A DNA stretch of 64,000 nucleotides from Armatimonadota bacterium. Lineage in GTDB: Bacteria > Armatimonadota > Zipacnadia > Zipacnadales > UBA5352. Made by a program: the position numbers and the translations under genes. Shown in pieces: positions 32,247 to 51,472 of the stretch. Within the stretch, counting starts at the first letter, position 1. The number at the start of each line of letters is the position of its first letter. The stretch covers positions 18,793 to 82,792 of the forward strand of contig JBMNNW010000006.1 of the NCBI GenBank assembly GCA_050942735.1, written 5' to 3'. The notes under the pieces are model-generated. The model was not told the origin of the DNA. It ran no database searches and was given only the letters and a program-made list of their open reading frames with translations.

Positions 32247-32276
32247 TTGACTCCCTTTCGACGGCTCTGTTATAAT
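32247..32276 (+). promoter_or_regulatory. Candidate sigma70-type promoter for fabZ-lpx operon (TTGACT-18-TATAAT)
   Basis: Near-consensus hexamers read from the sequence, about 110 nt upstream of the fabZ ATG. Confidence 0.4.
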
Positions 32277-32387
32277 CGCCGCGGCTTTCGCGGATGAGCT
32301 TGAGCGGCCGTCGCGGGACCGCGGTGTTGGCGGATGCCGCCTGCGGAGCCTGTGACGGTCGATGCATTATTCAGGAGGCGCCTGCCG

Positions 32388-32837
32388 ATGCTTCAGACCC
32401 GGGAGATCATGGAGATACTCCCCCATCGCTACCCGTTCCTGCTCGTCGATCGGATCGTCGAGCTTGAGCCCGGGGTGCGGGCGGTAGGGATCAAGAACGT
32501 CACCGCCAATGAGCCGCAGTTCACCGGCCACTGGCCGGACAACCCCGTCTTCCCCGGTGTGCTGATCCTCGAGGCCATGGCCCAGGTCGGCGGGGTGCTC
32601 CTGCTGACGGGCATCGAGTCCGAGGATATGCTTGCGCTCTTCGGCGGGGTGGACAAGGCGCGCTTCCGCAGGCAGGTTGTCCCCGGAGACCAGCTTCGCT
32701 TTGAGATCGAGATGCTGCGCCGCAAGGCCACGATCGGCAAAGTCAAGGGCGTTGCCACCGTTGACGATCAGGTTGCCGCCGAAGCCGAGCTTATGTTCGC
32801 ACTGACCGCGCCCCCCAACGCCGAGTCGGACGAATGA
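32388..32837 (+). CDS. fabZ: 3-hydroxyacyl-ACP dehydratase
   Basis: [14 protein letters not shown] ... FTGHWP ... PGVL. An AGGAGG RBS lies 9 nt upstream of the ATG at 32388. Confidence 0.85.
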
Positions 32838-32859: not shown

Positions 32860-33636
32860 ATGACGATCCATCAGACAGCAATCGTTGATCCCGGCGCGGA
32901 GCTTGGGGAGGGCGTTGAGGTCGGGCCGTTCTGCATCATCGAGAGCGGCGTGACCATCGGCGCGAACTGTCGAATCGGCCCGCACTGCGTCATCAGAAGT
33001 CACGTCACGATGGGCGGCGACAACACCCTCGACGTGGGGGTCGTTCTCGGCTCCGATCCGCAGGACGCCAAGTACCGGGGCGAGCGCAGCTTCGTCCGCA
33101 TCGGCAACGGCAATCTTATCCGCGAGTATGTAACGATCCACCGCGCGACCGGCGAGGACGCCGAGACGAGCGTCGGCGACAACAACTTCCTGATGGCATA
33201 CGCGCACCTCGGGCACAACGTTCGCGTCGGCTCCAACTGCAGCCTGGCGAGTTTCGCGGGCCTCAGCGGCCACTGCGTCGTGCAGGACCGCGCGATCATC
33301 GGCGGGCTCTCCGGACTCCACCAGTACGTTACCGTCGGTCGGATGTGCATGATCGGCGGGCACTCACGGGTGACGCGCGACATTCCGCCGTTCACCACCG
33401 CCCAGGGTAACGAGATCCACGGAATCAACGTAATCGGGCTGCAGCGCAACGGGGTCAGCCGCGAGGATCAGTCGGCGCTGCGCGAGGCGTTCAGGACCAT
33501 CTACCGCTCAGACGTCAACACCTCCGATGCGATCGATCGACTCCGCGGTGAGGGGGCGCTCTGCTCGCTGGTGGAGGAGTTCATCGCGTTCATCGAGCAC
33601 TCGAACGCCGGCGGCAGAGGCCGCCAGCAGGGCTGA
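32860..33636 (+). CDS. lpxA: Acyl-ACP--UDP-N-acetylglucosamine O-acyltransferase
   Basis: Left-handed beta-helix hexapeptide repeats. It starts MTIHQTAIVDP, with a GGAGGAG RBS. Confidence 0.85.
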   Translation: MTIHQTAIVDPGAELGEGVEVGPFCIIESGVTIGANCRIGPHCVIRSHVTMGGDNTLDVGVVLGSDPQDAKYRGERSFVRIGNGNLIREYVTIHRATGEDAETSVGDNNFLMAYAHLGHNVRVGSNCSLASFAGLSGHCVVQDRAIIGGLSGLHQYVTVGRMCMIGGHSRVTRDIPPFTTAQGNEIHGINVIGLQRNGVSREDQSALREAFRTIYRSDVNTSDAIDRLRGEGALCSLVEEFIAFIEHSNAGGRGRQQG

Positions 33637-41011: not shown

Positions 41012-42511
41012 ATGTCTGGAGCGTTCCTGATGACGAGCGACGGCCCGGGACCCCCGGAGCCCGACGACATCCTCGAAGACGACGGGCCGGCCGACGTGCC
41101 CGCGGCGACGCCAACCGATGCCGTGGTCGAGGAGCCGCCGGTGCCCGCGGCGCTGAAGCGTCGCGTGGATCTCACTGAGGGCCACCTGCTGCACAAGATC
41201 GTCCTGCTTGCGTGGCCGATCGTGACCGCGTCATTCCTGCAGTGGATCGAGGGCGTCGTGGACATCAAGATGGTCGGGCAGCTTGGCCCCGAGGCGATTG
41301 CCGCCGTGGGCCAGTCGCGCTCCGCGATCTTCACGTTCATGACCGTCATCTTCGCGGTCGCCACCGGCACCCAGGTGCTCGCGGCGCGCTACATGGGCGA
41401 GCGCAACCACGAGGGCGCATCGGAGGTCGCACGCCAGGCGATCATCCTGTCGGTGCTCTTCGGCGCGGCGATCATCCCGCTGGGCTACGTCTTCTCCCCC
41501 ACGGTCCTCACGATGATGGGCACCGAGGGCGTCGTCCACCAGGCCGCCACAGACTACATGCGCGTCTACTTCCTGGGCGCCATCGCGCTGATGATGAACT
41601 TCATGGTCATCTCGGCGCTGCGGGGCGCGGGTGACACGCTCACGCCGCTGTGGGTGCTGCTGATCATCAACTCGGGCAACATCCTCTTCGACTGGCTGCT
41701 GATCTTCGGAGTCGGTCCGTTCCCCGAGCTGGGTGTCAAAGGCGCGGCCTGGGCGGTCGTCATGTCGAGGACCATCGGCGCGATCATCCAACTGTGGATC
41801 GTCAGCAGCGGGAGATTCGCGATCCAGATGCCACTGATCGCGAGGTGGCGGGCAGACCTCGCGCTGTGGGGGAAGATGTTCTACATCGGCGTGCCAAGCT
41901 CGATCGAGGGCTTCACCCGCAACCTGGCGTTCCTGGTGGTCTTCTGGATCCTCAACCAGACCGACGCGGGGCGACTCGCCGTGGCCGGATACACCGTCTC
42001 GATGCAGATGCGCATGTTCGGCGTGATGTTCGGGCTGGCCCTCATGAGCGCGGCGATGACGGCGGTAAGTCAGAACATGGGGGCGGACGACCCGAAGCGC
42101 GCCGAGCGTAGCGGGTGGGCGGTGACGTGGATCTCGGTGGCGGCCACCGGCCTGATGGCGCTGGTGTTCATCAGCCTCTCGCCATGGCTGATCCGCTTCT
42201 TCACCGATGACCCGGAGGCGGTCAAGTGGGGTATCATCGCGCTGGTGACGCTCTCGGTCGCGCTGCCCTTCACCGGCGCTTCGATGGGCTTCGCCGGCGC
42301 CCTGCGAGGGGCTGGAGACACGCTCTCACCGCTCTACGTGAGCCTGATCTTCGTCTCGATCGTGGGCCCGGGCCTCGCCTACATCCTTACAGTTGTCCTC
42401 GGCTTCGGCCCGATCGGCGCGTGGGTAGGACTGAGCACCGCGTGGATCATGCAGGCGCTGACAGTCGGGACGATCTTCAGGCGCGGGAAGTGGAAGCAGA
42501 TCGAGCTGTGA
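41012..42511 (+). CDS. MATE-family efflux transporter (paralog 1)
   Basis: 12-TM protein with MATE-family blocks, and an acidic low-complexity N-terminal extension. Confidence 0.8.
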   Translation: MSGAFLMTSDGPGPPEPDDILEDDGPADVPAATPTDAVVEEPPVPAALKRRVDLTEGHLLHKIVLLAWPIVTASFLQWIEGVVDIKMVGQLGPEAIAAVGQSRSAIFTFMTVIFAVATGTQVLAARYMGERNHEGASEVARQAIILSVLFGAAIIPLGYVFSPTVLTMMGTEGVVHQAATDYMRVYFLGAIALMMNFMVISALRGAGDTLTPLWVLLIINSGNILFDWLLIFGVGPFPELGVKGAAWAVVMSRTIGAIIQLWIVSSGRFAIQMPLIARWRADLALWGKMFYIGVPSSIEGFTRNLAFLVVFWILNQTDAGRLAVAGYTVSMQMRMFGVMFGLALMSAAMTAVSQNMGADDPKRAERSGWAVTWISVAATGLMALVFISLSPWLIRFFTDDPEAVKWGIIALVTLSVALPFTGASMGFAGALRGAGDTLSPLYVSLIFVSIVGPGLAYILTVVLGFGPIGAWVGLSTAWIMQALTVGTIFRRGKWKQIEL

Positions 42512-42598: not shown

Positions 42599-44074
42599 GT
42601 GAGATGGATGCACGATCCGGACCCGACCCCGGGCGATGGGTTGGATGAACTCGAAGACATTCCCGATGAGGAACTCGTCATCCCCGCGGAGGGTGAGCCT
42701 GAGCCATCACCGGCGATCACGCGGCGGGTGGATCTCACGCAGGGACACCTTCTGCGGCAGATCTCCCTGCTCGCGTGGCCGATCGTCGCCGGATCGTTTC
42801 TCCAGTGGCTCATGGGCGTGGTGGACATCAAGATGGTCGGGACGCTGGGCCCGGCGGCGATTGCTGCCGTAGGGACGTCTCGCGAGGCCATCTTCACGTT
42901 CCTGACTCTCGTCTTCGCGGTGGCGACCGGCGCGCAGGTAATGACCGCGCGCTACATGGGCCAGCACGACCCGGACAGGGCCGCCTGCGTCTGTCGGCAG
43001 GCGATCATACTCAGCGTCATCTTCGGCGTGGTCATCGCGCCCGCGGGCTACTTCTTCGCAGGCAGCCTGCTCTCCGCGCTGGGGGCTCGGGGCGAGACAC
43101 TCGCCGAGGGCACGGCCTACATGCAGACCTTCTTCCTCGGCACAATCCCGCTGCTGCTGGGCTTTATGCTCACCTCATCCTTGCAGGGCGCCGGTGACAC
43201 GCTCACTCCGCTCTACGTGCTGGTGGGCGTTGTCGGCTCCAACATCCTGCTCAACTGGATGCTGATCTTCGGTGTCGGGCCCTTCCCGGCGATGGGCGTG
43301 GTGGGCGCCGCGTGGGGCACGGTGATCGCGCGCGCGATATCTGGCCTCGTGCTGCTGTGGATCGTCGCGAGCGGCCGCTTCGCGCTGCACGTGCCGCTGA
43401 TCGATCGCTGGCGGATCGACCTCGCGCTGTGGGGGAAGATGTTCTACATCGGCGTACCCTCGTCCATCGAGAGCTTCGCCCGAAACATGGGCTTCCTCGC
43501 GCTCTTCTGGATCCTCAATCAGACCGACGCGGGCCGGATGGCGGTGGCGGGGTACACGATCTCGGTGCAGATCCGCATGTTCGGGGTCATGTTCGGGCTG
43601 GCGTTGATGAGCGCGGCGATGACCGCCGTCAGTCAGAACATGGGAGCGCAGGACGTCGAGCGCGCCGAGCGCAGCGGCTGGACGATCACCGGCATCTCAT
43701 CCGCCACGATGACCGCGATGGCGCTGGGCTCGATCCTGCTCGCCGGTCCGCTGATCAGGTTCTTCACCGACAGCCCGGACACGATCCACTGGGGCGTCAT
43801 ATCACTGATCGTGCTCTCACTGTCACTGCCGTTCACCGGGCTGTCGATGGGCTGCTCGGGGTCACTCCGCGGCGCGGGCGACACCCTCTCGCCGCTCTAT
43901 GCGACGCTCATCTTCACCGCCGTGCTCGGCCCTGGACTGGCCTACCTGCTGACGGTCCCGCTCAACGCCGGCCCCCTCGGCGCGTGGATCGGGCTCGCGG
44001 TGGGAACGGTGCTGCAGTCACTGATGGTCGCGTGGATCTTCAGGCGCGGGCACTGGAAGCATATCAAGCTGTGA
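42599..44074 (+). CDS. MATE-family efflux transporter (paralog 2)
   Basis: Tandem paralog of 41012..42511. A stretch of about 80 aa is nearly identical (ALWGKMFYIGVPSSIE...AMTAVSQNMGA). Confidence 0.8.
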   Translation: MRWMHDPDPTPGDGLDELEDIPDEELVIPAEGEPEPSPAITRRVDLTQGHLLRQISLLAWPIVAGSFLQWLMGVVDIKMVGTLGPAAIAAVGTSREAIFTFLTLVFAVATGAQVMTARYMGQHDPDRAACVCRQAIILSVIFGVVIAPAGYFFAGSLLSALGARGETLAEGTAYMQTFFLGTIPLLLGFMLTSSLQGAGDTLTPLYVLVGVVGSNILLNWMLIFGVGPFPAMGVVGAAWGTVIARAISGLVLLWIVASGRFALHVPLIDRWRIDLALWGKMFYIGVPSSIESFARNMGFLALFWILNQTDAGRMAVAGYTISVQIRMFGVMFGLALMSAAMTAVSQNMGAQDVERAERSGWTITGISSATMTAMALGSILLAGPLIRFFTDSPDTIHWGVISLIVLSLSLPFTGLSMGCSGSLRGAGDTLSPLYATLIFTAVLGPGLAYLLTVPLNAGPLGAWIGLAVGTVLQSLMVAWIFRRGHWKHIKL

Positions 44075-44136: not shown

Positions 44137-45384
44137 ATGCCCCGGCAGCTCACCCACGCCGAACGACGTGTCCTGCGCGAGCTCGCCAGACGCGTCGCGG
44201 AGATCGCGGCCGACCCCGTCCAGGATGAGCGGCGGGCGATCTGGTACGCGCAGAACGCGCTGACGCCGATCCGCCCGCCGGTCTTCGTCTCACCCGACGG
44301 GGCGTGGGCGGAGCTGATCCCCGAGCGCCTGCTGGCCTGCCGGTCCGACCACGCCCGGGCGATCGAACTGGCACTTCGCAAGCGCATCTACGCCCACGAG
44401 CACTTCGGGGACGATCAGGTGGTGGACGCGCAGTGGCGTGTGCCCTTCGCGGTGACGCGAACCGCATGGGGAATCGGCCCTGTGATGCGCGAGACCGAGG
44501 AGGACCGCGGAGCACACGCGTGGGATGCACCTGTCAGATCGCGGGGCGACATCGAGCGGATCCAGACGCCGACGGCGAGCCACGACGTCGAAGAGAGCCG
44601 GCGGCGGCTCGCGTGGCACGAGGAGCTATTTGACGGCATCCTCGACGTGCACCTGCACGGGCTCTGGTGGTGGTCGTTGGGGCTGATCGATGAGTGGACC
44701 CACCTTCGCGGCATTGAACAGACCTACCTCGACATGAGCGACGACCCCGAACTTGTGCACGCGGGGATGCACCGGCTGATGGAGGGGAGGCTGGCGTGGG
44801 TCCAGCAACTCGAGAACCTCGGCGTGCTCTCGCTGAACAACGACAACGACTACGTCGGCTCCGGCTGCTTCGGATACACCGATGAGCTGCCGCAAGATGA
44901 CTTCGACGACCACGTGCGCCCCGCCGACATGTGGGGCTTCTGCGAGGCGCAGCCGATGTCGGCGGTCTCCCCGGCGATGCAGGACGAGTTCGTCCTCCCC
45001 TATCAGATCCCAATCCTCGATAGGTTCGGCCTCAACTGCTACGGCTGCTGCGAGCCGCTGGACAGGATGCTGGGATCGCTGCTCGCGCGCGTCCCTCGAC
45101 TGCGGCGGGTCTCCATCAGCCCGTGGGCGGACGTGAGGCGCAGCGCTGAGCAACTCGGCGGAGACGTGATCTTCTCGTGGAAGCCCAACCCGGCGCCGCT
45201 GGCCGCCCCGAACTTCGATGAGAACGCACTGAAGAGCGAGATCAGGCAGACCCTCAACATCGCCTCAGAGCACGGCTGTGCGGTGGAGATCGTGATGCGG
45301 ACGACCCACACCTGCAACAACCATCCCGAGCGCTTCGACCGCTACGCCCGGATGGCGATGGAGGAGGTCACCAGATCCGCCTGA
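44137..45384 (+). CDS. Hypothetical protein (415 aa), possibly URO-D/TIM-barrel-like
   Basis: It starts MPRQLTHAER after an intergenic gap. The longer ORF-track start overlaps MATE2 in another frame. Confidence 0.45.
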   Translation: MPRQLTHAERRVLRELARRVAEIAADPVQDERRAIWYAQNALTPIRPPVFVSPDGAWAELIPERLLACRSDHARAIELALRKRIYAHEHFGDDQVVDAQWRVPFAVTRTAWGIGPVMRETEEDRGAHAWDAPVRSRGDIERIQTPTASHDVEESRRRLAWHEELFDGILDVHLHGLWWWSLGLIDEWTHLRGIEQTYLDMSDDPELVHAGMHRLMEGRLAWVQQLENLGVLSLNNDNDYVGSGCFGYTDELPQDDFDDHVRPADMWGFCEAQPMSAVSPAMQDEFVLPYQIPILDRFGLNCYGCCEPLDRMLGSLLARVPRLRRVSISPWADVRRSAEQLGGDVIFSWKPNPAPLAAPNFDENALKSEIRQTLNIASEHGCAVEIVMRTTHTCNNHPERFDRYARMAMEEVTRSA

Positions 45385-45395
45385 ACTGAAAGTTC

Positions 45396-45424
45396 TTGCA
45401 CTTCATTTGGCAATCGCCTATACT
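45396..45424 (+). promoter_or_regulatory. Candidate cspA promoter TTGCAC-17-TATACT with about 95-nt 5'UTR
   Basis: Hexamers read from the sequence. Long structured 5'UTRs are typical for cold-shock genes. Confidence 0.4.
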
Positions 45425-45523
45425 CCTCATGAGTTTTACCGAGCTGTGCCGTTGTTCGAAGCGCCGTAAGAGTTTGTGCCAGCGCAAGAACAGGGCACAA
45501 AGCAGACCGGGAGGGCACACGTA

Positions 45524-45760
45524 ATGGCGACCGGGACAGTGAAGTGGTTCGATGACGCAAAGGGCTTCGGGTTCATTGAGCGGGAGGACGGCGAGGACGT
45601 ATTCGTCCACTACTCTGCCATCGCGGGCGAGGGCTACAAGTCGCTCGCCGAGGGAGCTGAGGTCGAGTTCGATGTCGAGCAGGACGCAAAGGGTCCCCGC
45701 GCCGCCAACGTGGTCGTCACGAGGGCCGGTCAGTCCGACAGCTCGACTTCGATGTGGTGA
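45524..45760 (+). CDS. cspA: Cold-shock protein, CspA family (with short C-terminal extension)
   Basis: [33 protein letters not shown] has the RNP1 and RNP2 motifs. A GGGAGGG RBS precedes it. Confidence 0.85.
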
Positions 45761-45784
45761 GCACCACACCTGAGCCCAAAGATC

Positions 45785-45815
45785 GCGCCCGGCAGACGCC
45801 GGGCGCTCTCCTTTT
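45785..45815 (+). terminator. Intrinsic terminator: gcgcccggc-aga-gccgggcgc followed by TCTCCTTTT
   Basis: 9-bp GC stem plus a U-tract, 25 nt after the cspA stop. It is the only canonical U-tract terminator noticed in the window. Confidence 0.6.
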
Positions 45816-45889
45816 AACGCCTCGGCAACACCGGCGGCATTCCGGACGCGGGGCTACGCTGAGCACCTCTTCGGCACGACTGCGCCCGC

Positions 45890-45918
45890 TTGACACTCCA
45901 TGGAGACGCCGGTACAAT
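45890..45918 (+). promoter_or_regulatory. Near-consensus sigma70 promoter TTGACA-17-TACAAT
   Basis: Read from the sequence. It sits upstream of three small ORFs (45963-46766). Confidence 0.45.
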
Positions 45919-45962
45919 CGAGTGTGTCTACTGTCGTGCATGAGGCCCGAGGAGGACCCTGT

Positions 45963-46082
45963 GTGACGTGCCCCAGGTGCCGCGTGAGCATGAAGGAGCA
46001 GAGAGGCATCTTCCATAATAAGCGCAAGTTCAGATGCCCCAAATGCCGCACAGTCAGGATGAAGAAACACCGGAAGCGGTAG
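45963..46082 (+). CDS. Small (39-aa) highly basic zinc-ribbon protein (CPRC...CPKC)
   Basis: The GTG start lies 7 nt after a GAGGAGG RBS and downstream of the predicted TSS. The ORF-track ATG at 45900 lies inside the promoter. Confidence 0.35.
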   Translation: MTCPRCRVSMKEQRGIFHNKRKFRCPKCRTVRMKKHRKR

Positions 46083-46100
46083 GCCGCTTCGATCGGATGG

Positions 46101-46508
46101 TTGAGTCACGTGATGGTTCAGACGACCGAACGGACAGGCGTATTCAAGCAGTGCAGTCTCTGCGGACACCGGTGGGCGGACCTTGCGGATGTGGTCGTTG
46201 ACCGTGATCTGAAAGTCACGGGGTACCAGGCGTGCTTCGTCAGTCCGGAGATGGGGCTGGTGCTGATGACGCACTGCGTCGAAGACTGCGGGACGACGCT
46301 CGCGCTTCGAGTGAAGGCCCTCAGGGAACTCTACGACGGCCCGCAGTACACCGAACTGCGCGCCGGGCAGGAGAGTTGCCGGGAATACTGCCTGCAGCAC
46401 AACATACTTGAGGAGTGCGACGTAGACTGTGAGCTTGCGTGGATGCGCAGCGTACTTCAATACCTGCGCCGACACGAGCTTCCGCCACACCTGCGTCGGC
46501 GAGGATAG
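46101..46508 (+). CDS. Cys-rich hypothetical protein (135 aa; CxxC + 3x CxxxC)
   Basis: Uninterrupted ORF immediately upstream of the TM ORF at 46512 (3-nt gap). GC is visibly lower. No family was recognised. Confidence 0.35.
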   Translation: MSHVMVQTTERTGVFKQCSLCGHRWADLADVVVDRDLKVTGYQACFVSPEMGLVLMTHCVEDCGTTLALRVKALRELYDGPQYTELRAGQESCREYCLQHNILEECDVDCELAWMRSVLQYLRRHELPPHLRRRG

Positions 46509-46511
46509 CGT

Positions 46512-46766
46512 ATGAGCGCGGACGACCTGAGACTCGAGGAGCCAAAGGCGACGGAGCGCGGCTGGCTGCGGACGGTTCTGCTGATGGCCCTTCCGCTCGC
46601 CACCGTGTGGGCCGCCGCGTTCTGGGTCACCGGCCTGCTGTGGTGGGAGGCGGATGTCGTGGTGGAGCAGATCCCCCCGCCCCAGCCGCCACAGATCGAG
46701 GCGATTGACGCAGAGACCATCGATCTCGACCGCTACAGCCGGGCATATCCGACGTGGTCGCCGTAG
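46512..46766 (+). CDS. Small single-TM hypothetical protein (84 aa)
   Basis: Its ATG lies 1 nt after the previous stop. It has a Trp-rich TM helix and a Pro/Gln linker. Confidence 0.3.
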   Translation: MSADDLRLEEPKATERGWLRTVLLMALPLATVWAAAFWVTGLLWWEADVVVEQIPPPQPPQIEAIDAETIDLDRYSRAYPTWSP

Positions 46767-46910
46767 CCGGGCGGCTGCGGCCGCTGCGCCGGGCCGGGCG
46801 CTGACCATCTCTGCCCCGGCACAGCGTCAGTGAATCTCAGCCGCTCACCAGGCAGTCCGGGCCGCCGCGGATGAGCCGACAATCGCAGCATGATCGCGGC
46901 AAGGGATACC

Positions 46911-48209
46911 ATGACCGCACATCACATCAGTGTCATCGGCGGAGGACTCGCCGGCTGCGCGGCAGCGCTCGCGGCTGAAGCCCGCGGAGTTCGCGTCACG
47001 CTCTACGAGCAGCGTCCTGCACGCACGACCGCGATGCACCAGACGGCCCTGCCCGGGGAACTCACCGGGACGGCCGACCTCGGAGTGGAGGACCCCGATC
47101 GCGCGACCGGCCTGCTGAAGGCGGAGATACGCGTCATATGTCCCGAGGTGACGGCCTGCGCAGACGCAGCGCGCATCGCCGGGCAGACGATGGCGGTGGA
47201 TCGGGCCGCATTTGCGGCCGCAATCGCGGAGCGGATCGAGGCGGCCGAGGGGATCACCCTTGTGCGCGAGCAGGCTCGGACGCTCCCCGATGGCCCGGTG
47301 GTCATCGCGAGCGGGCCAGCCACCTGGTCGCCGCTCGCGAGGGCCATCCACGCGGCCTGCGGGGCGGGCTTTCACTTCGCGTTCATCGGAAGGCCGCCGC
47401 TGATAGCCGCCGAGTCGATCGATCGCTCTGACGCCCGACAGGAGCCGCCCTATCCCGGTGCGGAGCCCGCGCTGTTCGTCCCGCTGACGGAGCGGGAGGC
47501 CGAGCAGTTTGCCGCAGCACTTGTGGCCGGCGAGCGCCGGGAGCCGCCGGACTTCGGCCACGAGGCGGTCCTTGCCGACGAATCCAGGACGGCTGAGCGG
47601 ATGGCCGCCGATCCGGAGGTCGGGGTGGGCAGACTCCTGCGCGGACCACGCGGACCGGAGACGGACGTCGCCCCTCCGGCGTTGTGCCTGACGCCCGATG
47701 ACGCCGACCCGCGCGCGTACCACGTGGAGGGTCTTCTGACCGCACTGACGGCTGAGAGCCAACTGGACACGCTACGCGCGGTCGATGCACTGGCCGGCGT
47801 GCAGATCCTGCGGCCCGGGTTGGTGCACCGCACCCCGCTGCTGGCAGGACCGGAGGCCACGCTGCCGAATCTCCAACTGCGCCGCACCGGCCGGGCGCTG
47901 GTGGCGGGAACGCTCAGCGGCGTTTACGGCTACGCCGAGGCGATCGCGACCGGCGCCGTCGCGGGCATCGGGGCAGCCCGCATGGCGCGCGGCCCCGAGC
48001 CGCTGCCTCCTCCACGCGAGTGCCTGGCAGGAGCGTTGTGCTGGGCCGTGGCTGAGACGGAGCCGCATCCGGACGGGCGGATGCTGCGCGCGAACTTCGG
48101 GATGATTCCCGAGCATCGGCAGGACCAGGGTCTCGACAAGGCCCGCCGTCGCGAGCGGCAGGAGAAGCGCGCGCTGGACGCGACGGAGCGCTACGCCGGG
48201 GCGGACTGA
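46911..48209 (+). CDS. trmFO: Methylenetetrahydrofolate--tRNA-(uracil54-C5)-methyltransferase TrmFO (Gid)
   Basis: FAD motif ISVIGGGLAGCAAALAAEARG. The C-terminal block is GTLSGVYGYAEAIATGAVAGI...ANFGMIPE. An upstream ATG at 46890 is also possible. The trmFO-xerC-hslVU synteny also supports the call. Confidence 0.7.
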   Translation: MTAHHISVIGGGLAGCAAALAAEARGVRVTLYEQRPARTTAMHQTALPGELTGTADLGVEDPDRATGLLKAEIRVICPEVTACADAARIAGQTMAVDRAAFAAAIAERIEAAEGITLVREQARTLPDGPVVIASGPATWSPLARAIHAACGAGFHFAFIGRPPLIAAESIDRSDARQEPPYPGAEPALFVPLTEREAEQFAAALVAGERREPPDFGHEAVLADESRTAERMAADPEVGVGRLLRGPRGPETDVAPPALCLTPDDADPRAYHVEGLLTALTAESQLDTLRAVDALAGVQILRPGLVHRTPLLAGPEATLPNLQLRRTGRALVAGTLSGVYGYAEAIATGAVAGIGAARMARGPEPLPPPRECLAGALCWAVAETEPHPDGRMLRANFGMIPEHRQDQGLDKARRRERQEKRALDATERYAGAD

Positions 48210-48320
48210 CCGCGACGGCCCGGGAGTCTTGCGCCGGCGGCGCCGGTGGGCGCGCGCGGCAGGCGGACCCGATCGGGCCGCGCCACGAGGCGGCACACCT
48301 ATCACACCAGGAGCAGATGC

Positions 48321-49292
48321 ATGCACGCGGGATGGCTGGACGGTTTCCTGAGGTACTGCACCGACGTGCGGCAGCTCTCCACGAGCACGGCCGAGGCGTA
48401 CGCGAAGGACGTCATCCAGTTCGCGGACTTCCTTGCGGATGAGTGGGGTGAGGATCGCGCGTATGACTGGGCGGCGGTGGACTACCGCATGGTGCGCCGC
48501 TTCCTCGCGCATCTGTCGCGTCAGAGATACGATCGTTCGAGCATGACCCGAAAGCTGTCAGCGTTGCGCTCGTTCTTCCGCTACCTGCTCAATGAGGACG
48601 AAGTGACGCACAACCCGGCCGCCGTCGCGCCGACTCCAAAGCGCGACGAGAAGCTGCCGGAGTACCTCTACCCGGACGAGATGGAGCAACTGCTGCAGGC
48701 GCCCGATGAGAGCATACCGCTGGGCCAGCGGGACCGCGCGATCCTCGAGCTGCTCTACGCGACCGGGGTGCGCGTGAGCGAGTTGGTCGCGATGGACGTG
48801 GAAGACCTCCAGTTCGCCGAGCGGCAGATCCGCGTGATCGGCAAGGGCAATCACGAGCGCGTTGTGCTGATGGGCGAACGCGCGATCGCGGCGGTCCGAC
48901 GCTATATCGCCGACGGCCGCGAGAAGCTGCTCCGTGACGCCCAGTCGCCCGACGAGCAGGCGCTGTTTCTCAACCGCAGCGGCGGCCGAATCTCCGTCCG
49001 GGGCGTGCAGCAGCGCGTGCACAAGCACGTCCTGGAGGCGGCCGCCTCCAGCCGTGTGACGCCACACGCTCTCCGTCACACATTCGCCACCCATCTGCTC
49101 GACGGAGGGGCCGACCTGCGCTCAATCCAGGCGCTGCTGGGCCACAAGTCGCTCGGGACGGTCGGGATATACACTCACCTGACCACCGAGCGCATGAAGC
49201 GCACGTACCACGCCGCCCACCCGTTGGCCGACGACGCCGCTCCGGAGAACCTCGCCGAGGCGGCGGAGCGAGCAGACGCGGAGGATCACTAA
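48321..49292 (+). CDS. xerC: Tyrosine site-specific recombinase XerC/XerD (chromosome dimer resolution)
   Basis: Catalytic residues in order: R...(ELxxLxxxDxD)...HxLRHTFAT...Y (LGHKSLGTVGIYTHL). Sits in the conserved trmFO-xerC-hslVU block. Confidence 0.8.
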   Translation: MHAGWLDGFLRYCTDVRQLSTSTAEAYAKDVIQFADFLADEWGEDRAYDWAAVDYRMVRRFLAHLSRQRYDRSSMTRKLSALRSFFRYLLNEDEVTHNPAAVAPTPKRDEKLPEYLYPDEMEQLLQAPDESIPLGQRDRAILELLYATGVRVSELVAMDVEDLQFAERQIRVIGKGNHERVVLMGERAIAAVRRYIADGREKLLRDAQSPDEQALFLNRSGGRISVRGVQQRVHKHVLEAAASSRVTPHALRHTFATHLLDGGADLRSIQALLGHKSLGTVGIYTHLTTERMKRTYHAAHPLADDAAPENLAEAAERADAEDH

Positions 49293-49339
49293 GAAGCGAC
49301 CCGGACGGCGCGCCATGAACCCGGGCCCGAGGAGCTGCC

Positions 49340-49885
49340 ATGATACGATCCACGACAATCATTGTTGTTCGCCGCGACGGCAGGACCGCGATGGTCGGCG
49401 ACGGGCAGGTCAGCATCGACGACACGATCGTCAAGGGCAGCGCGCAGAAAGTGCGGACGATGCGCGACGGCGAGGTGATCGCCGGGTACGCAGGCGCCGC
49501 CGCCGATGCACTTGCGCTGTTCGAGCGGCTTGAGGAGAAGCTGGACGAGTACAACGGGAATCTGCCGCGCGCGTCGGTCGAGCTGGTCAAGCAGTGGCGC
49601 ACCGACAGAGTCCTACGCCAGCTTGAGGCGCTGCTGCTGGTGGCCGACGAGGAGCAGATGTTCCTGATCTCCGGGACCGGCGACGTCATCGTACCGGATG
49701 AGGACCTCATGGCGATCGGCTCCGGCGGAGGCTTCGCGACCGCCGCGGCGAAGGCGCTGCTGCGTCACACCGACATGAGCGCCCGGGAGATCGCCGAGAC
49801 CGCGCTGCGCATCGCCGGGGAGATCTGCGTGTACACCAATGACACGCTGACCGTCGAAGAGTTGCCTGCCGAAGACGACGAGTGA
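49340..49885 (+). CDS. hslV: ATP-dependent protease subunit HslV
   Basis: TTIIVVRRDGRTAMVGDGQVS ... GSGG. A GAGGAG RBS is present. A short MIRS sequence precedes the catalytic Thr. Confidence 0.85.
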   Translation: MIRSTTIIVVRRDGRTAMVGDGQVSIDDTIVKGSAQKVRTMRDGEVIAGYAGAAADALALFERLEEKLDEYNGNLPRASVELVKQWRTDRVLRQLEALLLVADEEQMFLISGTGDVIVPDEDLMAIGSGGGFATAAAKALLRHTDMSAREIAETALRIAGEICVYTNDTLTVEELPAEDDE

Positions 49886-49999
49886 GTTCCGACTCCGGGT
49901 GGCCGGCCGTGAGCGACCTCCGACCGACCGCCTGGTGATCCGTCCGGCCAAACACAGAGATGGCAGGTTGCGGGCGGGCCGCGTCCCGGGCCGGTAGCC

Positions 50000-51472
50000 A
50001 TGACAGGAGATATCACTGAGATGTTGATACGACCAGACGAGCGCGACGTGCCTGACCTGAGCTCAGAGATGACGCCGAGGGAGATCGTGGCGTCGCTGGA
50101 TCGGTACATCGTCGGGCAGGATGACGCAAAGCGCGCGGTGGCCGTCGCGCTGCGCAACCGCGTCCGGCGACAGCATATCGCCGAGGACCTGCGCGATGAA
50201 GTCATACCAAAGAACATCCTGATGATCGGCCCGACCGGTGTCGGCAAGACCGAGATTGCGCGGCGGCTCGCACAACTGGCGAAGGCGCCCTTCATCAAGG
50301 TCGAGGCCACGAAGTTCACCGAGGTCGGCTACGTCGGCCGCGACGTCGAGTCGATCGTGCGCGACCTCGTGGACATCGCCTTCCGGATGGTCGAAAAGGA
50401 GCACCTCAAGCGCGTCATGCCCGAGGCGAAGCAGCGGGCGAACGAGCGCCTCCTCGAGACGCTCGCGGGCGGCGCCCCTGACGCCTCGGAGGGGGGCTGG
50501 ATGGGCGGCGGGATGTTCGGGCGCGAGGAGAGCGCCGAGGAGGCGATCACCCGCCAGGAGCACGAGCGAAAGCAGCGCGAACAGCATCAGAAGGTCCGCG
50601 AGTACACCCGCCGGCGGCTCGAGTCGGGCGAGCTTGAGGATCAGGAGATCGAGGTCGAGGTCGAGGACACCGGCGGGACACAGAGCCTGCAGATCTTCTC
50701 ACCGCAGGGGATCGAGGAGATGGGATTCAGCATGCAGGATATGCTGGGCAGCCTCTTCCCCTCACAGACGACCACACGCACGATGACCGTTGCCGAGGCC
50801 CGCGAGGTGCTCGCGGCGCAGGAGGCCCAGCGACTGATCGACAGCCACGCGATCGGGGCGGAGGCGATCGACCGCAGCGAACAGTCGGGAATCGTCTTCC
50901 TCGACGAGCTCGACAAGGTCGCCGGGCGCGGCAGCGAGGGCCACGGCCCCGATGTCTCACGAGAGGGCGTGCAGCGGGACATCCTCCCGATCATCGAGGG
51001 CTCGACAGTGCAGACGAAGTACGGCCCCTGCGACACATTCCACGTACTCTTCATCTGCGCCGGGGCGTTCCATGTCTCCAGCCCGTCGGACCTGATCCCT
51101 GAACTGCAGGGGCGGCTGCCGATCCGCGTTGAACTCGACAGCCTCTCGGGCGACGACTTCCGCCGCATCCTCGTCGAGCCGGAAAACTCGCTCGTGCGCC
51201 AGTACACCGAGCTGCTCGCGACCGAGGGCGTAACCATCGACTTCACCGATGATGCCCTTGATCTCATCGCCGAGACCGCCGAGGACGTCAACGACACCAC
51301 CGAGAACATCGGGGCGCGGCGGCTCTACACGCTGATGGAGCGGCTGCTTGAGGAGCTCTCCTTTGAGGCGCCTGAGATCTCAGGACAGAAGATCACCGTT
51401 GACGTCGGCTACGTCGACTCGCAGCTTGCCGACCTCGCGAGCGACGAGGACCTGTCCCGGTACATGCTCTGA
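50000..51472 (+). CDS. hslU: ATP-dependent protease ATPase subunit HslU
   Basis: EMTPREIV...YIVGQDDAKRAVAVALRNR, Walker A GPTGVGKTE, C-terminal DLSRYML. The start could be 50000, 50021 or 50069. Confidence 0.85.
   Translation: MTGDITEMLIRPDERDVPDLSSEMTPREIVASLDRYIVGQDDAKRAVAVALRNRVRRQHIAEDLRDEVIPKNILMIGPTGVGKTEIARRLAQLAKAPFIKVEATKFTEVGYVGRDVESIVRDLVDIAFRMVEKEHLKRVMPEAKQRANERLLETLAGGAPDASEGGWMGGGMFGREESAEEAITRQEHERKQREQHQKVREYTRRRLESGELEDQEIEVEVEDTGGTQSLQIFSPQGIEEMGFSMQDMLGSLFPSQTTTRTMTVAEAREVLAAQEAQRLIDSHAIGAEAIDRSEQSGIVFLDELDKVAGRGSEGHGPDVSREGVQRDILPIIEGSTVQTKYGPCDTFHVLFICAGAFHVSSPSDLIPELQGRLPIRVELDSLSGDDFRRILVEPENSLVRQYTELLATEGVTIDFTDDALDLIAETAEDVNDTTENIGARRLYTLMERLLEELSFEAPEISGQKITVDVGYVDSQLADLASDEDLSRYML

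Follow-up and report, generated by a model that had tools for sequence, protein, structure and literature searches.

A promoter-headed block of small genes upstream of trmFO in anaerobic Armatimonadota: a conserved pair encoding a predicted zinc ribbon and a membrane protein, with an optional Cys-rich protein

In this study, we describe a block of three small genes lying between csp, a cold-shock protein gene, and trmFO in a stretch of 64,000 nucleotides from an Armatimonadota bacterium (contig JBMNNW010000006.1, positions 18,793 to 82,792; hereafter the window). We refer to their products as ZR39, a 39-residue predicted zinc-ribbon microprotein, C131, a Cys-rich protein of 131 residues, and TM84, a predicted single-pass membrane protein of 84 residues. 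Comparison with related loci indicates that the conserved unit is the ZR39-TM84 pair and not the trio, that C131 is an accessory to it, and that the promoter-headed block is confined to anaerobic Armatimonadota (Zipacnadia and their relatives). The reading that we favor as a whole, with modest rather than strong confidence, is that a promoter-headed ZR39-TM84 unit, with C131 as accessory, shares one transcript with trmFO-xerC-hslVU and encodes a metal-binding, membrane-associated module. The small genes are not described in any library searched, and literature searches found no published description of ZR39, C131, or TM84. An earlier note on this DNA had likewise recognized no family for any of the three, which is correct as far as described families go, but profile searches place C131 in a large family that has no name.

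The evidence for the pair comes from about 30 related loci (numbered with the prefix L below), of which about 20 are distinct. The ZR39 open reading frame (ORF) lies directly upstream of TM84 in every locus that carries TM84, usually with a gap of 21-61 nt where C131 is absent. In the most distant lineages, in which ZR39 begins with ATG, the two genes overlap by 4 nt (ATGA; L059 and L060) or stand 1 nt apart (L061 and L062). Conservation of all three genes together, which the earlier note had raised, thus holds for the pair but not for C131, which is present in 6 of the roughly 30 loci (the window, L001, L002, L003, L014, and L020). On the TM84 tree, loci with and without C131 are intermingled, a patchy distribution which implies that the gene was lost, or gained, repeatedly at precisely this site. 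In the five loci where the junction was read, the C131 stop codon is 3-9 nt from the TM84 start; in the window the spacer is 3 nt (TAG-cgt-ATG) and not the single nucleotide first reported, and the TM84 Shine-Dalgarno (SD) sequence GAGGA at 46501-46505 falls within the last codons of C131. C131 is an optional insert between ZR39 and TM84 and is predicted to be translationally coupled to TM84.

All three ORFs have the signature of genuine conserved genes under purifying selection. The codon-level comparison that had been suggested as their test gave median pairwise ratios of nonsynonymous to synonymous substitution (dN/dS) of 0.107 for ZR39 (13 loci), 0.311 for C131 (5 loci), and 0.336 for TM84 (12 loci), and third codon positions are the most variable in each. 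The G+C content at third codon positions (GC3) is 0.82, 0.74, and 0.87, respectively, similar to that of csp, trmFO, and xerC. We give next to no credence to the alternative that the small ORFs are spurious and that the real feature is a 363-residue ORF on the opposite strand or a non-coding trmFO leader. The long antisense frame (45717-46808) is open in L002 and L003 too, but its GC3 is 0.65 against 0.74-0.87 for the forward-strand ORFs, and it is broken where C131 is absent. Moreover, the forward-strand products have hundreds of homologs with conserved ligand patterns, and no Rfam family matched anywhere in the window. The low dN/dS values, GC3, the broken antisense frame, the homologs, and the Rfam result together already refute this alternative. 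The reading of ZR39 as a leader peptide or upstream ORF was rejected because its peptide sequence and zinc ligands are conserved at a dN/dS of 0.1, and a type I toxin was rejected on account of the single copy, the housekeeping synteny, and the length of 84 residues. Within the window there are no paralogs of the three small proteins, and no tRNA genes were found. The source genome's own NCBI annotation apparently calls the middle gene only (P0001, 131 residues). The 39- and 84-residue proteins of the window are both absent from a collection of 5.8 billion proteins that does contain the 131-residue one, and in which the best match to the 84-residue protein is 83% identical.

The block is headed by what appears to be a near-consensus, phylogenetically footprinted promoter. 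The TTGACA-17-TACAAT element pointed out earlier as lying downstream of the csp U-tract terminator is indeed there: the terminator consists of a hairpin at 45785-45806 plus a T-tract, and the promoter begins 84 nt after the hairpin end. Its hexamers (TTGACA at 45890-45895 and TACAAT at 45913-45918, with a spacer of 17 nt) match the consensus (-35 TTGACA, -10 TATAAT, spacing 16-18 nt) at 11 of 12 positions. It is the one sigma-70-like site in 45000-47500, where 0.2 would be expected, and the pattern TTGAC-N17-20-TAYAAT occurs twice in the whole window against an expectation of 0.01. When 19 distinct upstream regions were compared, the sole conserved islands were CTTGAC(A/T) and C(C)GGTACAATC, that is, the -35 and an extended -10; CTTGAC(A/T) and CGGTACAATC were kept in these regions amid diverging flanks, and L016 retains a TTGACA-17-TAGAAT version. 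The conserved promoter precedes the ZR39 ORF throughout the Armatimonadota-type loci (the window and L001-L026), and the gene upstream of the block varies, being csp in L001 and L002 and a divergent CoA_binding gene in L003, L004, and L007. The SD sequence GAGGAGG, 7 nt before the GTG that opens the 39-residue ORF, is as had been read, as is the quoted peptide; it is invariant in a four-locus alignment, and other Armatimonadota loci have SD-like GGAGG or GAGGTG. In the Armatimonadota-type loci ZR39 starts with GTG or TTG and never with ATG, and this non-ATG start despite a strong SD may tune translation. An ATG at 45900, which would give a 60-residue version of ZR39, was rejected as a start; it falls within the promoter spacer and is not conserved. 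The visibly lower local G+C content remarked on in the earlier note is real but modest (0.58-0.62 over 45850-46450 against 0.65-0.76 nearby), and the csp region is equally low; the dip arises largely because the ZR39 codons are Lys/Arg-rich (G+C at first codon positions, 0.38). The second TTGAC-N17-20-TAYAAT site of the window, TTGACT-18-TATAAT at 32247-32276 on the forward strand, is located just 5' of a FabZ-like ORF (32334-32837) and an LpxA-like ORF (32860-33636), both named by eye from their translations. In this genome, promoters close to the consensus seem to be a mark of housekeeping operons.

That this promoter drives the three small ORFs, as first proposed, is supported but is probably incomplete. 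Since neither a terminator nor a second promoter was found before trmFO, the promoter probably serves the whole operon through xerC-hslVU. The RNA folding z-score of the TM84-trmFO spacer is -0.58, with no U-tract and no unusual RNA structure, and the gap measures 30-144 nt across the loci (30-64 nt in L004, L006, and L007). Wherever an annotated locus extends far enough, TM84 is followed by a GIDA-family (trmFO-like) gene and then by xerC, with hslVU as well where the sequence reaches it, and the order trmFO-xerC-hslV-hslU is common to the window and the longer loci L004-L007. Co-transcription of the whole block would be the most economical reading of this arrangement. The Bacillus-type operon has the order topA-trmFO(gid)-codV(xerC)-clpQ(hslV)-clpY(hslU). 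The downstream order is the same in both, but here the head is a promoter followed by two or three small uncharacterized genes instead of topA, so that the block forms a lineage-specific head on an otherwise widespread trmFO-xerC-hslVU operon.

ZR39 has 16 Lys/Arg in its 39 residues and an isoelectric point (pI) of 11.7. All 13 diverse variants compared share the motif C3-x2-C6-x18-C25-x2-C28, as expected of a zinc ribbon with two CxxC knuckles about 15-25 residues apart, and the residues invariant across lineages are M1, T2, C3, C6, R7, V8, M10, H18, R21, K22, C25, P26, and C28; most homologs have CPKCG as the second knuckle. The protein-database search, led by a 44-residue relative as first query, returned 4 ZR39 entries among the 5.8 billion proteins, and a metagenome scan found homologs sharing the invariant residues in other lineages. 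ZR39 is essentially unannotated and is almost never called by annotation. No curated zinc-ribbon family of Pfam or NCBIfam scores above its gathering threshold, and generic zinc-ribbon models alone score at all, the best Pfam scores being 21.8 bits for Zn_ribbon_FGT1_2 and 19.5 bits for Zn_ribbon_TFIIB, both below cut-off. The likeness to a ribosomal protein suggested in the earlier note is borne out by composition but not by family, because no ribosomal protein family in Pfam or NCBIfam matches at E<=1. Three other candidates were rejected: a Trm112-type methyltransferase activator, an idea that came solely from the adjacency of trmFO (Trm112p, PF03966, is not among the Pfam matches at E<=1); a remnant of the topA C-terminal zinc ribbon (there is no PF01396 match, and ZR39 has its own promoter and SD); and the haloarchaeal Z-ring anchor CdpC, also a zinc-ribbon protein, which is unrelated. 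A perfect 7-bp hairpin, GAAGCGG-TAGG-CCGCTTC at 46073-46090, spans the ZR39 stop codon; it is not conserved in L001-L003 and is therefore probably incidental.

TM84 has one hydrophobic segment, at about residues 21-45, in agreement with the single transmembrane (TM) span ascribed to it earlier, together with a pI of 4.2 and an acidic, Pro-rich C-terminal tail of 40 residues. Its conserved core consists of W..AF..TGLLWW, a PPP stretch, and (I/V)DL..Y..HP.W. The 26 homologs are 84-86 residues long, and those with a source name are from Armatimonadota metagenome-assembled genomes (MAGs). Eight GTDB species representatives carry TM84, labeled Armatimonadota, "WS1," or Candidatus Zipacnadia; Zipacnadia is an Armatimonadota class of hypoxic and anoxic habitats (PMC10290634). 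The family has no Pfam match and no PDB sequence match (hits at E>1), and the NCBIfam SepX/GlpR match is noise (E=0.094; 12.5 bits against a cut-off of 160). One homolog, at L027:1690-1944, apparently carries a frameshift after its start (MKTLAVIAIAIVLA) and before the conserved LLWQQVFAMTGLLWW segment, reflecting either an assembly error or a pseudogene.

For C131, the most likely start is ATG 46113, in agreement with the homologs and with the NCBI call, rather than TTG 46101, which would give the 135 residues first assigned to it. It has 9 close homologs, of which the identical one is a "hypothetical protein" in an Armatimonadota MAG, and a profile built from them collected 649 cluster representatives at E<=1e-3, 363 of them at E<=1e-10. 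Profile matching on this scale indicates that C131 is not an orphan but belongs to a large, widespread, unnamed domain family. Its relatives are mostly stand-alone proteins of 115-145 residues. The putative ligands C14, C17, H54, C59, C89, C93, C102, and C106 are each kept in at least 136 of 148 relatives; those other than C14 and C17 are kept in at least 144, and C14 and C17 are lost solely in N-terminally truncated entries. W21, D30, G37, Y38, G48, and R112 are also conserved. The CxxC and three CxxxC motifs listed in the earlier note are all present, but C55, the first Cys of CVEDC, is not conserved, which leaves two of the three CxxxC pairs, and the ligand set also includes H54. An AlphaFold2 model from a 45-sequence alignment reached a mean predicted local distance difference test score (pLDDT) of 93.7 and a predicted template modeling score (pTM) of 0.85. 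The model places the CxxC and H-x4-C ligands at the turns of beta-hairpins, as in a zinc ribbon, and the twin Cx3C pairs in a well-predicted loop region; it has no structural neighbor in the PDB. None of 45 diverse family members matched Pfam or NCBIfam at E<=0.01, and the PADLOC and PHROG models gave no match to the C131 of the window. The domain is also found as a C-terminal fusion partner of FHA-GAF-HisKA-HATPase_c kinases and, in other proteins, joined to a hemerythrin domain or an acyl-ACP thioesterase, and cluster members are all named "hypothetical" save one "bacteriohemerythrin" fusion. The N-terminal extensions of longer relatives contained no Rosetta-stone fusion of ZR39 to C131 and look like mis-called starts.

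Under the reading that we favor, one transcript would carry ZR39, C131, TM84, trmFO, xerC, hslV, and hslU. ZR39 would bind one Zn(II) through C3, C6, C25, and C28 and, with a net charge of +15, would contact a polyanionic partner, whether a nucleic acid, an acidic protein, or a lipid surface. Given that every TM84 gene has ZR39 immediately before it, and that the genes overlap or are 1 nt apart in distant lineages, the two proteins most likely form a two-chain unit, TM84 as membrane anchor and ZR39 as soluble zinc-ribbon head. C131 would add two putative metal sites, a zinc-ribbon-like C2HC site (C14, C17, H54, and C59) and a Cys4 site (C89, C93, C102, and C106) that may hold either Zn or an Fe-S cluster. 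In view of this ligand pattern and of the fusions to FHA-GAF histidine kinases and hemerythrin, C131 is most likely a metal- or redox-responsive signaling or adaptor domain. The module predicted from these sequences would be metal-binding and membrane-associated, and possibly, in this lineage, sensor-equipped.

Several observations weigh against this reading. Firstly, many ZR39 homologs outside the Armatimonadota-type loci lack TM84 and trmFO and adjoin recQ, dnaX, or YGGT genes; ZR39 can therefore function alone. Secondly, in one marine group the homologs lie on a multi-copy block of ~200-245 bp that is 96-98% identical between otherwise unrelated contexts (L033-L052, for example L043:2958-3200). 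Thirdly, the cytoplasmic N-terminus of TM84 varies among distant versions instead of being conserved, and it is acidic in the main clade only and not in the L059 and L061 versions, which weakens a simple electrostatic docking model. Finally, conserved neighbors were looked for around distant stand-alone C131 relatives and none were found, so that nothing ties the C131 family to membrane proteins generally.

The main rival builds on the first of these points. In this view ZR39 is a microprotein that binds nucleic acid on its own, with RNA, the ribosome, or DNA as its target, and its tie to TM84 and the housekeeping genes is limited to the common operon, so that ZR39 and TM84 would not form a physical unit. 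We regard it as rather unlikely, yet it deserves to be taken seriously in view of the extreme basicity of ZR39, its homologs beside recQ, dnaX, and YGGT genes, and its neighbors csp and trmFO, which act on RNA. A PDB profile search also returned eL43 (E=0.016), an HVO-2753-like ribosome-bound protein (E=0.063), and L37Ae (E=0.25), but these weak matches are knuckle-level noise, none being significant and those to eL43 and L37Ae covering one knuckle, and no ribosomal family matched in Pfam or NCBIfam. The constant presence of ZR39 directly upstream of TM84, and the overlapping or 1-nt-spaced genes of the distant lineages, argue instead for co-production of the two. ZR39 looks like a unit that folds on its own and became fixed beside TM84 in the Armatimonadota lineage.

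The marine block bears on another explanation, namely that ZR39 derives from the N-terminal zinc ribbon of an IS1- or IS1595-type transposase, either domesticated or left as a remnant, and that the locus is a mobile-element relic. This we consider improbable. The near-identity of the block in unrelated contexts would fit it, as would the JGI name "transposase-like protein" on one ZR39 homolog, weak matches to Zn_ribbon_IS1595 (E=0.055), an IS1 transposase (E=0.17), and the Cas12f TNB domain (E=0.003), and two transposase genes upstream in L001. However, every one of these matches is under its family threshold, ZR39 is single-copy in the window with a dN/dS of 0.11, its synteny with housekeeping genes and its promoter are fixed in Armatimonadota, and only in L001, by chance, does a transposase catalytic domain lie beside it. 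The marine block itself looks like a multi-copy or mobile mini-cassette. It is often preceded by an overlapping (ATGA) ORF of ~65 residues (MRGRKTGGCRKGTPNKVT...), and contigs of 0.5-1.7 Mb are among those that bear it.

The earlier note had also seen a loose resemblance to zinc-binding anti-sigma modules. In such a split module, the role of holding back a sigma factor would fall to the zinc- or Cys-rich protein, with the membrane protein relaying an envelope signal. Summed over two or three chains, the block does resemble the ZAS/zf-HC2 anti-sigma factors in layout (a Zn/Cys module in the cytoplasm, a single TM helix, and a short segment outside), and one TM84 homolog was auto-named "FerR" by JGI. 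Unlike those single-chain factors, the parts here are separate polypeptides; the HxxxCxxC motif is absent from ZR39, C131, and TM84; neither zf-HC2 (PF13490) nor any other anti-sigma family of Pfam or NCBIfam matches at E<=1; neither the window nor any annotated related locus has a sigma factor gene next to the block; and the operon partners are trmFO, xerC, and hslVU. The resemblance does not survive these comparisons, and we judge a split anti-sigma module to be very improbable.

With regard to described systems, one of the closest parallels is found, for ZR39, in one-domain zinc-finger micro-proteins with two C(P)XCG motifs, such as Haloferax volcanii HVO_2753 and HVO_0758 (PMC6562870, PMC10716476). 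ZR39 is like these in having fewer than 70 residues, a single C4 zinc-binding domain (predicted in ZR39), and CPxC(G) knuckles, and in being of a kind frequently missed by annotation; the haloarchaeal proteins need zinc for their structure. It is unlike them in being bacterial and far more basic and in having a fixed place in an operon that includes a membrane protein gene and trmFO, and it has no significant match to them (NCBIfam HVO_2523, E=0.36; the PDB value is that given above). A second parallel is Mycobacterium tuberculosis Ruc (Rv0991c; PMC7448276), a small Cys4 zinc-binding protein whose metal site can be a redox switch, with which Hsp33 may be grouped for its redox-sensitive Cys4 zinc-binding domain. 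Our locus adjoins protein-quality-control genes (hslVU), and we take the resemblance as a lead only. No sequence or fold similarity to Ruc or Hsp33 was detected, ZR39 has no disordered client-binding tail, and the fold of C131 is different and unmatched.

It is the combination of strong constraint (dN/dS of about 0.1) and a conserved promoter and ribosome-binding site with 4 entries among 5.8 billion that makes ZR39 a conserved coding sequence invisible to annotation. The C131 family presents eight-ligand Cys/His domains without a name, a Pfam or NCBIfam model, or a PDB structural neighbor, and, given its fusions to sensor kinases and hemerythrin, it is a candidate for a new kind of sensory or adaptor module. 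We tentatively advance, as a proposal that could well prove wrong, a broader formulation in two parts. In the first, a widespread undescribed domain (at least 649 clusters at 50% identity, about 115 residues, C2HC and Cys4 sites, and a fold absent from the PDB) would act as a metal-, redox-, or O2-linked signaling module, alone or fused to histidine kinases or hemerythrin, with C131 as the first of its members to be examined; in the second, ZR39 and TM84 would be a previously unannotated two-chain microprotein module heading trmFO-xerC-hslVU in anaerobic Armatimonadota. The locus offers an entry point to small-protein function in these uncultivated organisms.

Table 1. Coordinates, in window positions, of the small-gene block and its surroundings
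Feature	Position	Strand	Basis
csp, cold-shock protein gene; upstream neighbor outside the unit	45524..45760	+	Pfam CSD, E=6.8e-30
csp intrinsic terminator; 9-bp all-G+C stem, then TCTCCTTTTA	45785..45816	+	Terminator scan
Predicted sigma-70-type promoter, TTGACA-17-TACAAT	45890..45918	+	Conserved CCGG directly 5' of the -10
Shine-Dalgarno GAGGAGG, 7 nt before GTG 45963	45949..45955	+	Direct reading
ZR39, predicted 39-residue C4 zinc-ribbon microprotein, GTG start	45963..46082	+	Homologs, dN/dS, GC3
C131, 131-residue Cys-rich protein; stand-alone copy of the unnamed, putatively metal-binding eight-ligand domain	46113..46508	+	Homologs, profile, AlphaFold2
TM84, 84-residue single-pass membrane protein, predicted N-in	46512..46766	+	Homologs, dN/dS, GC3
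TM84-trmFO spacer; no terminator, no promoter-like site	46767..46910	+	Promoter/terminator scan
trmFO, likely start ATG 46911 (MTAHHISVIGGGLAGC); listed ORF from 46890	46911..48209	+	NCBIfam TrmFO, E=5e-74; Pfam GIDA
xerC-like recombinase (48246-49292), hslV (49340-49885), hslU (50000-51472)	48246..51472	+	Pfam Phage_integrase, Proteasome, AAA_2
Antisense 363-residue "shadow" ORF, not a gene	45717..46808	-	GC3 0.65; broken in loci without C131

Further upstream, the gene 5' of csp (44137-45384, forward strand) encodes a 415-residue protein that, scanned as a 690-residue ORF, has no Pfam match at E<=1. Across its full length it shares 73% identity with its positional counterpart in L002 (L002:442-1695), which makes it a further conserved protein with no function assigned by family. 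Two tandem MatE-family efflux genes precede it, at 41012-42511 and 42599-44074 on the forward strand, each with a Pfam E-value of about 1e-54.

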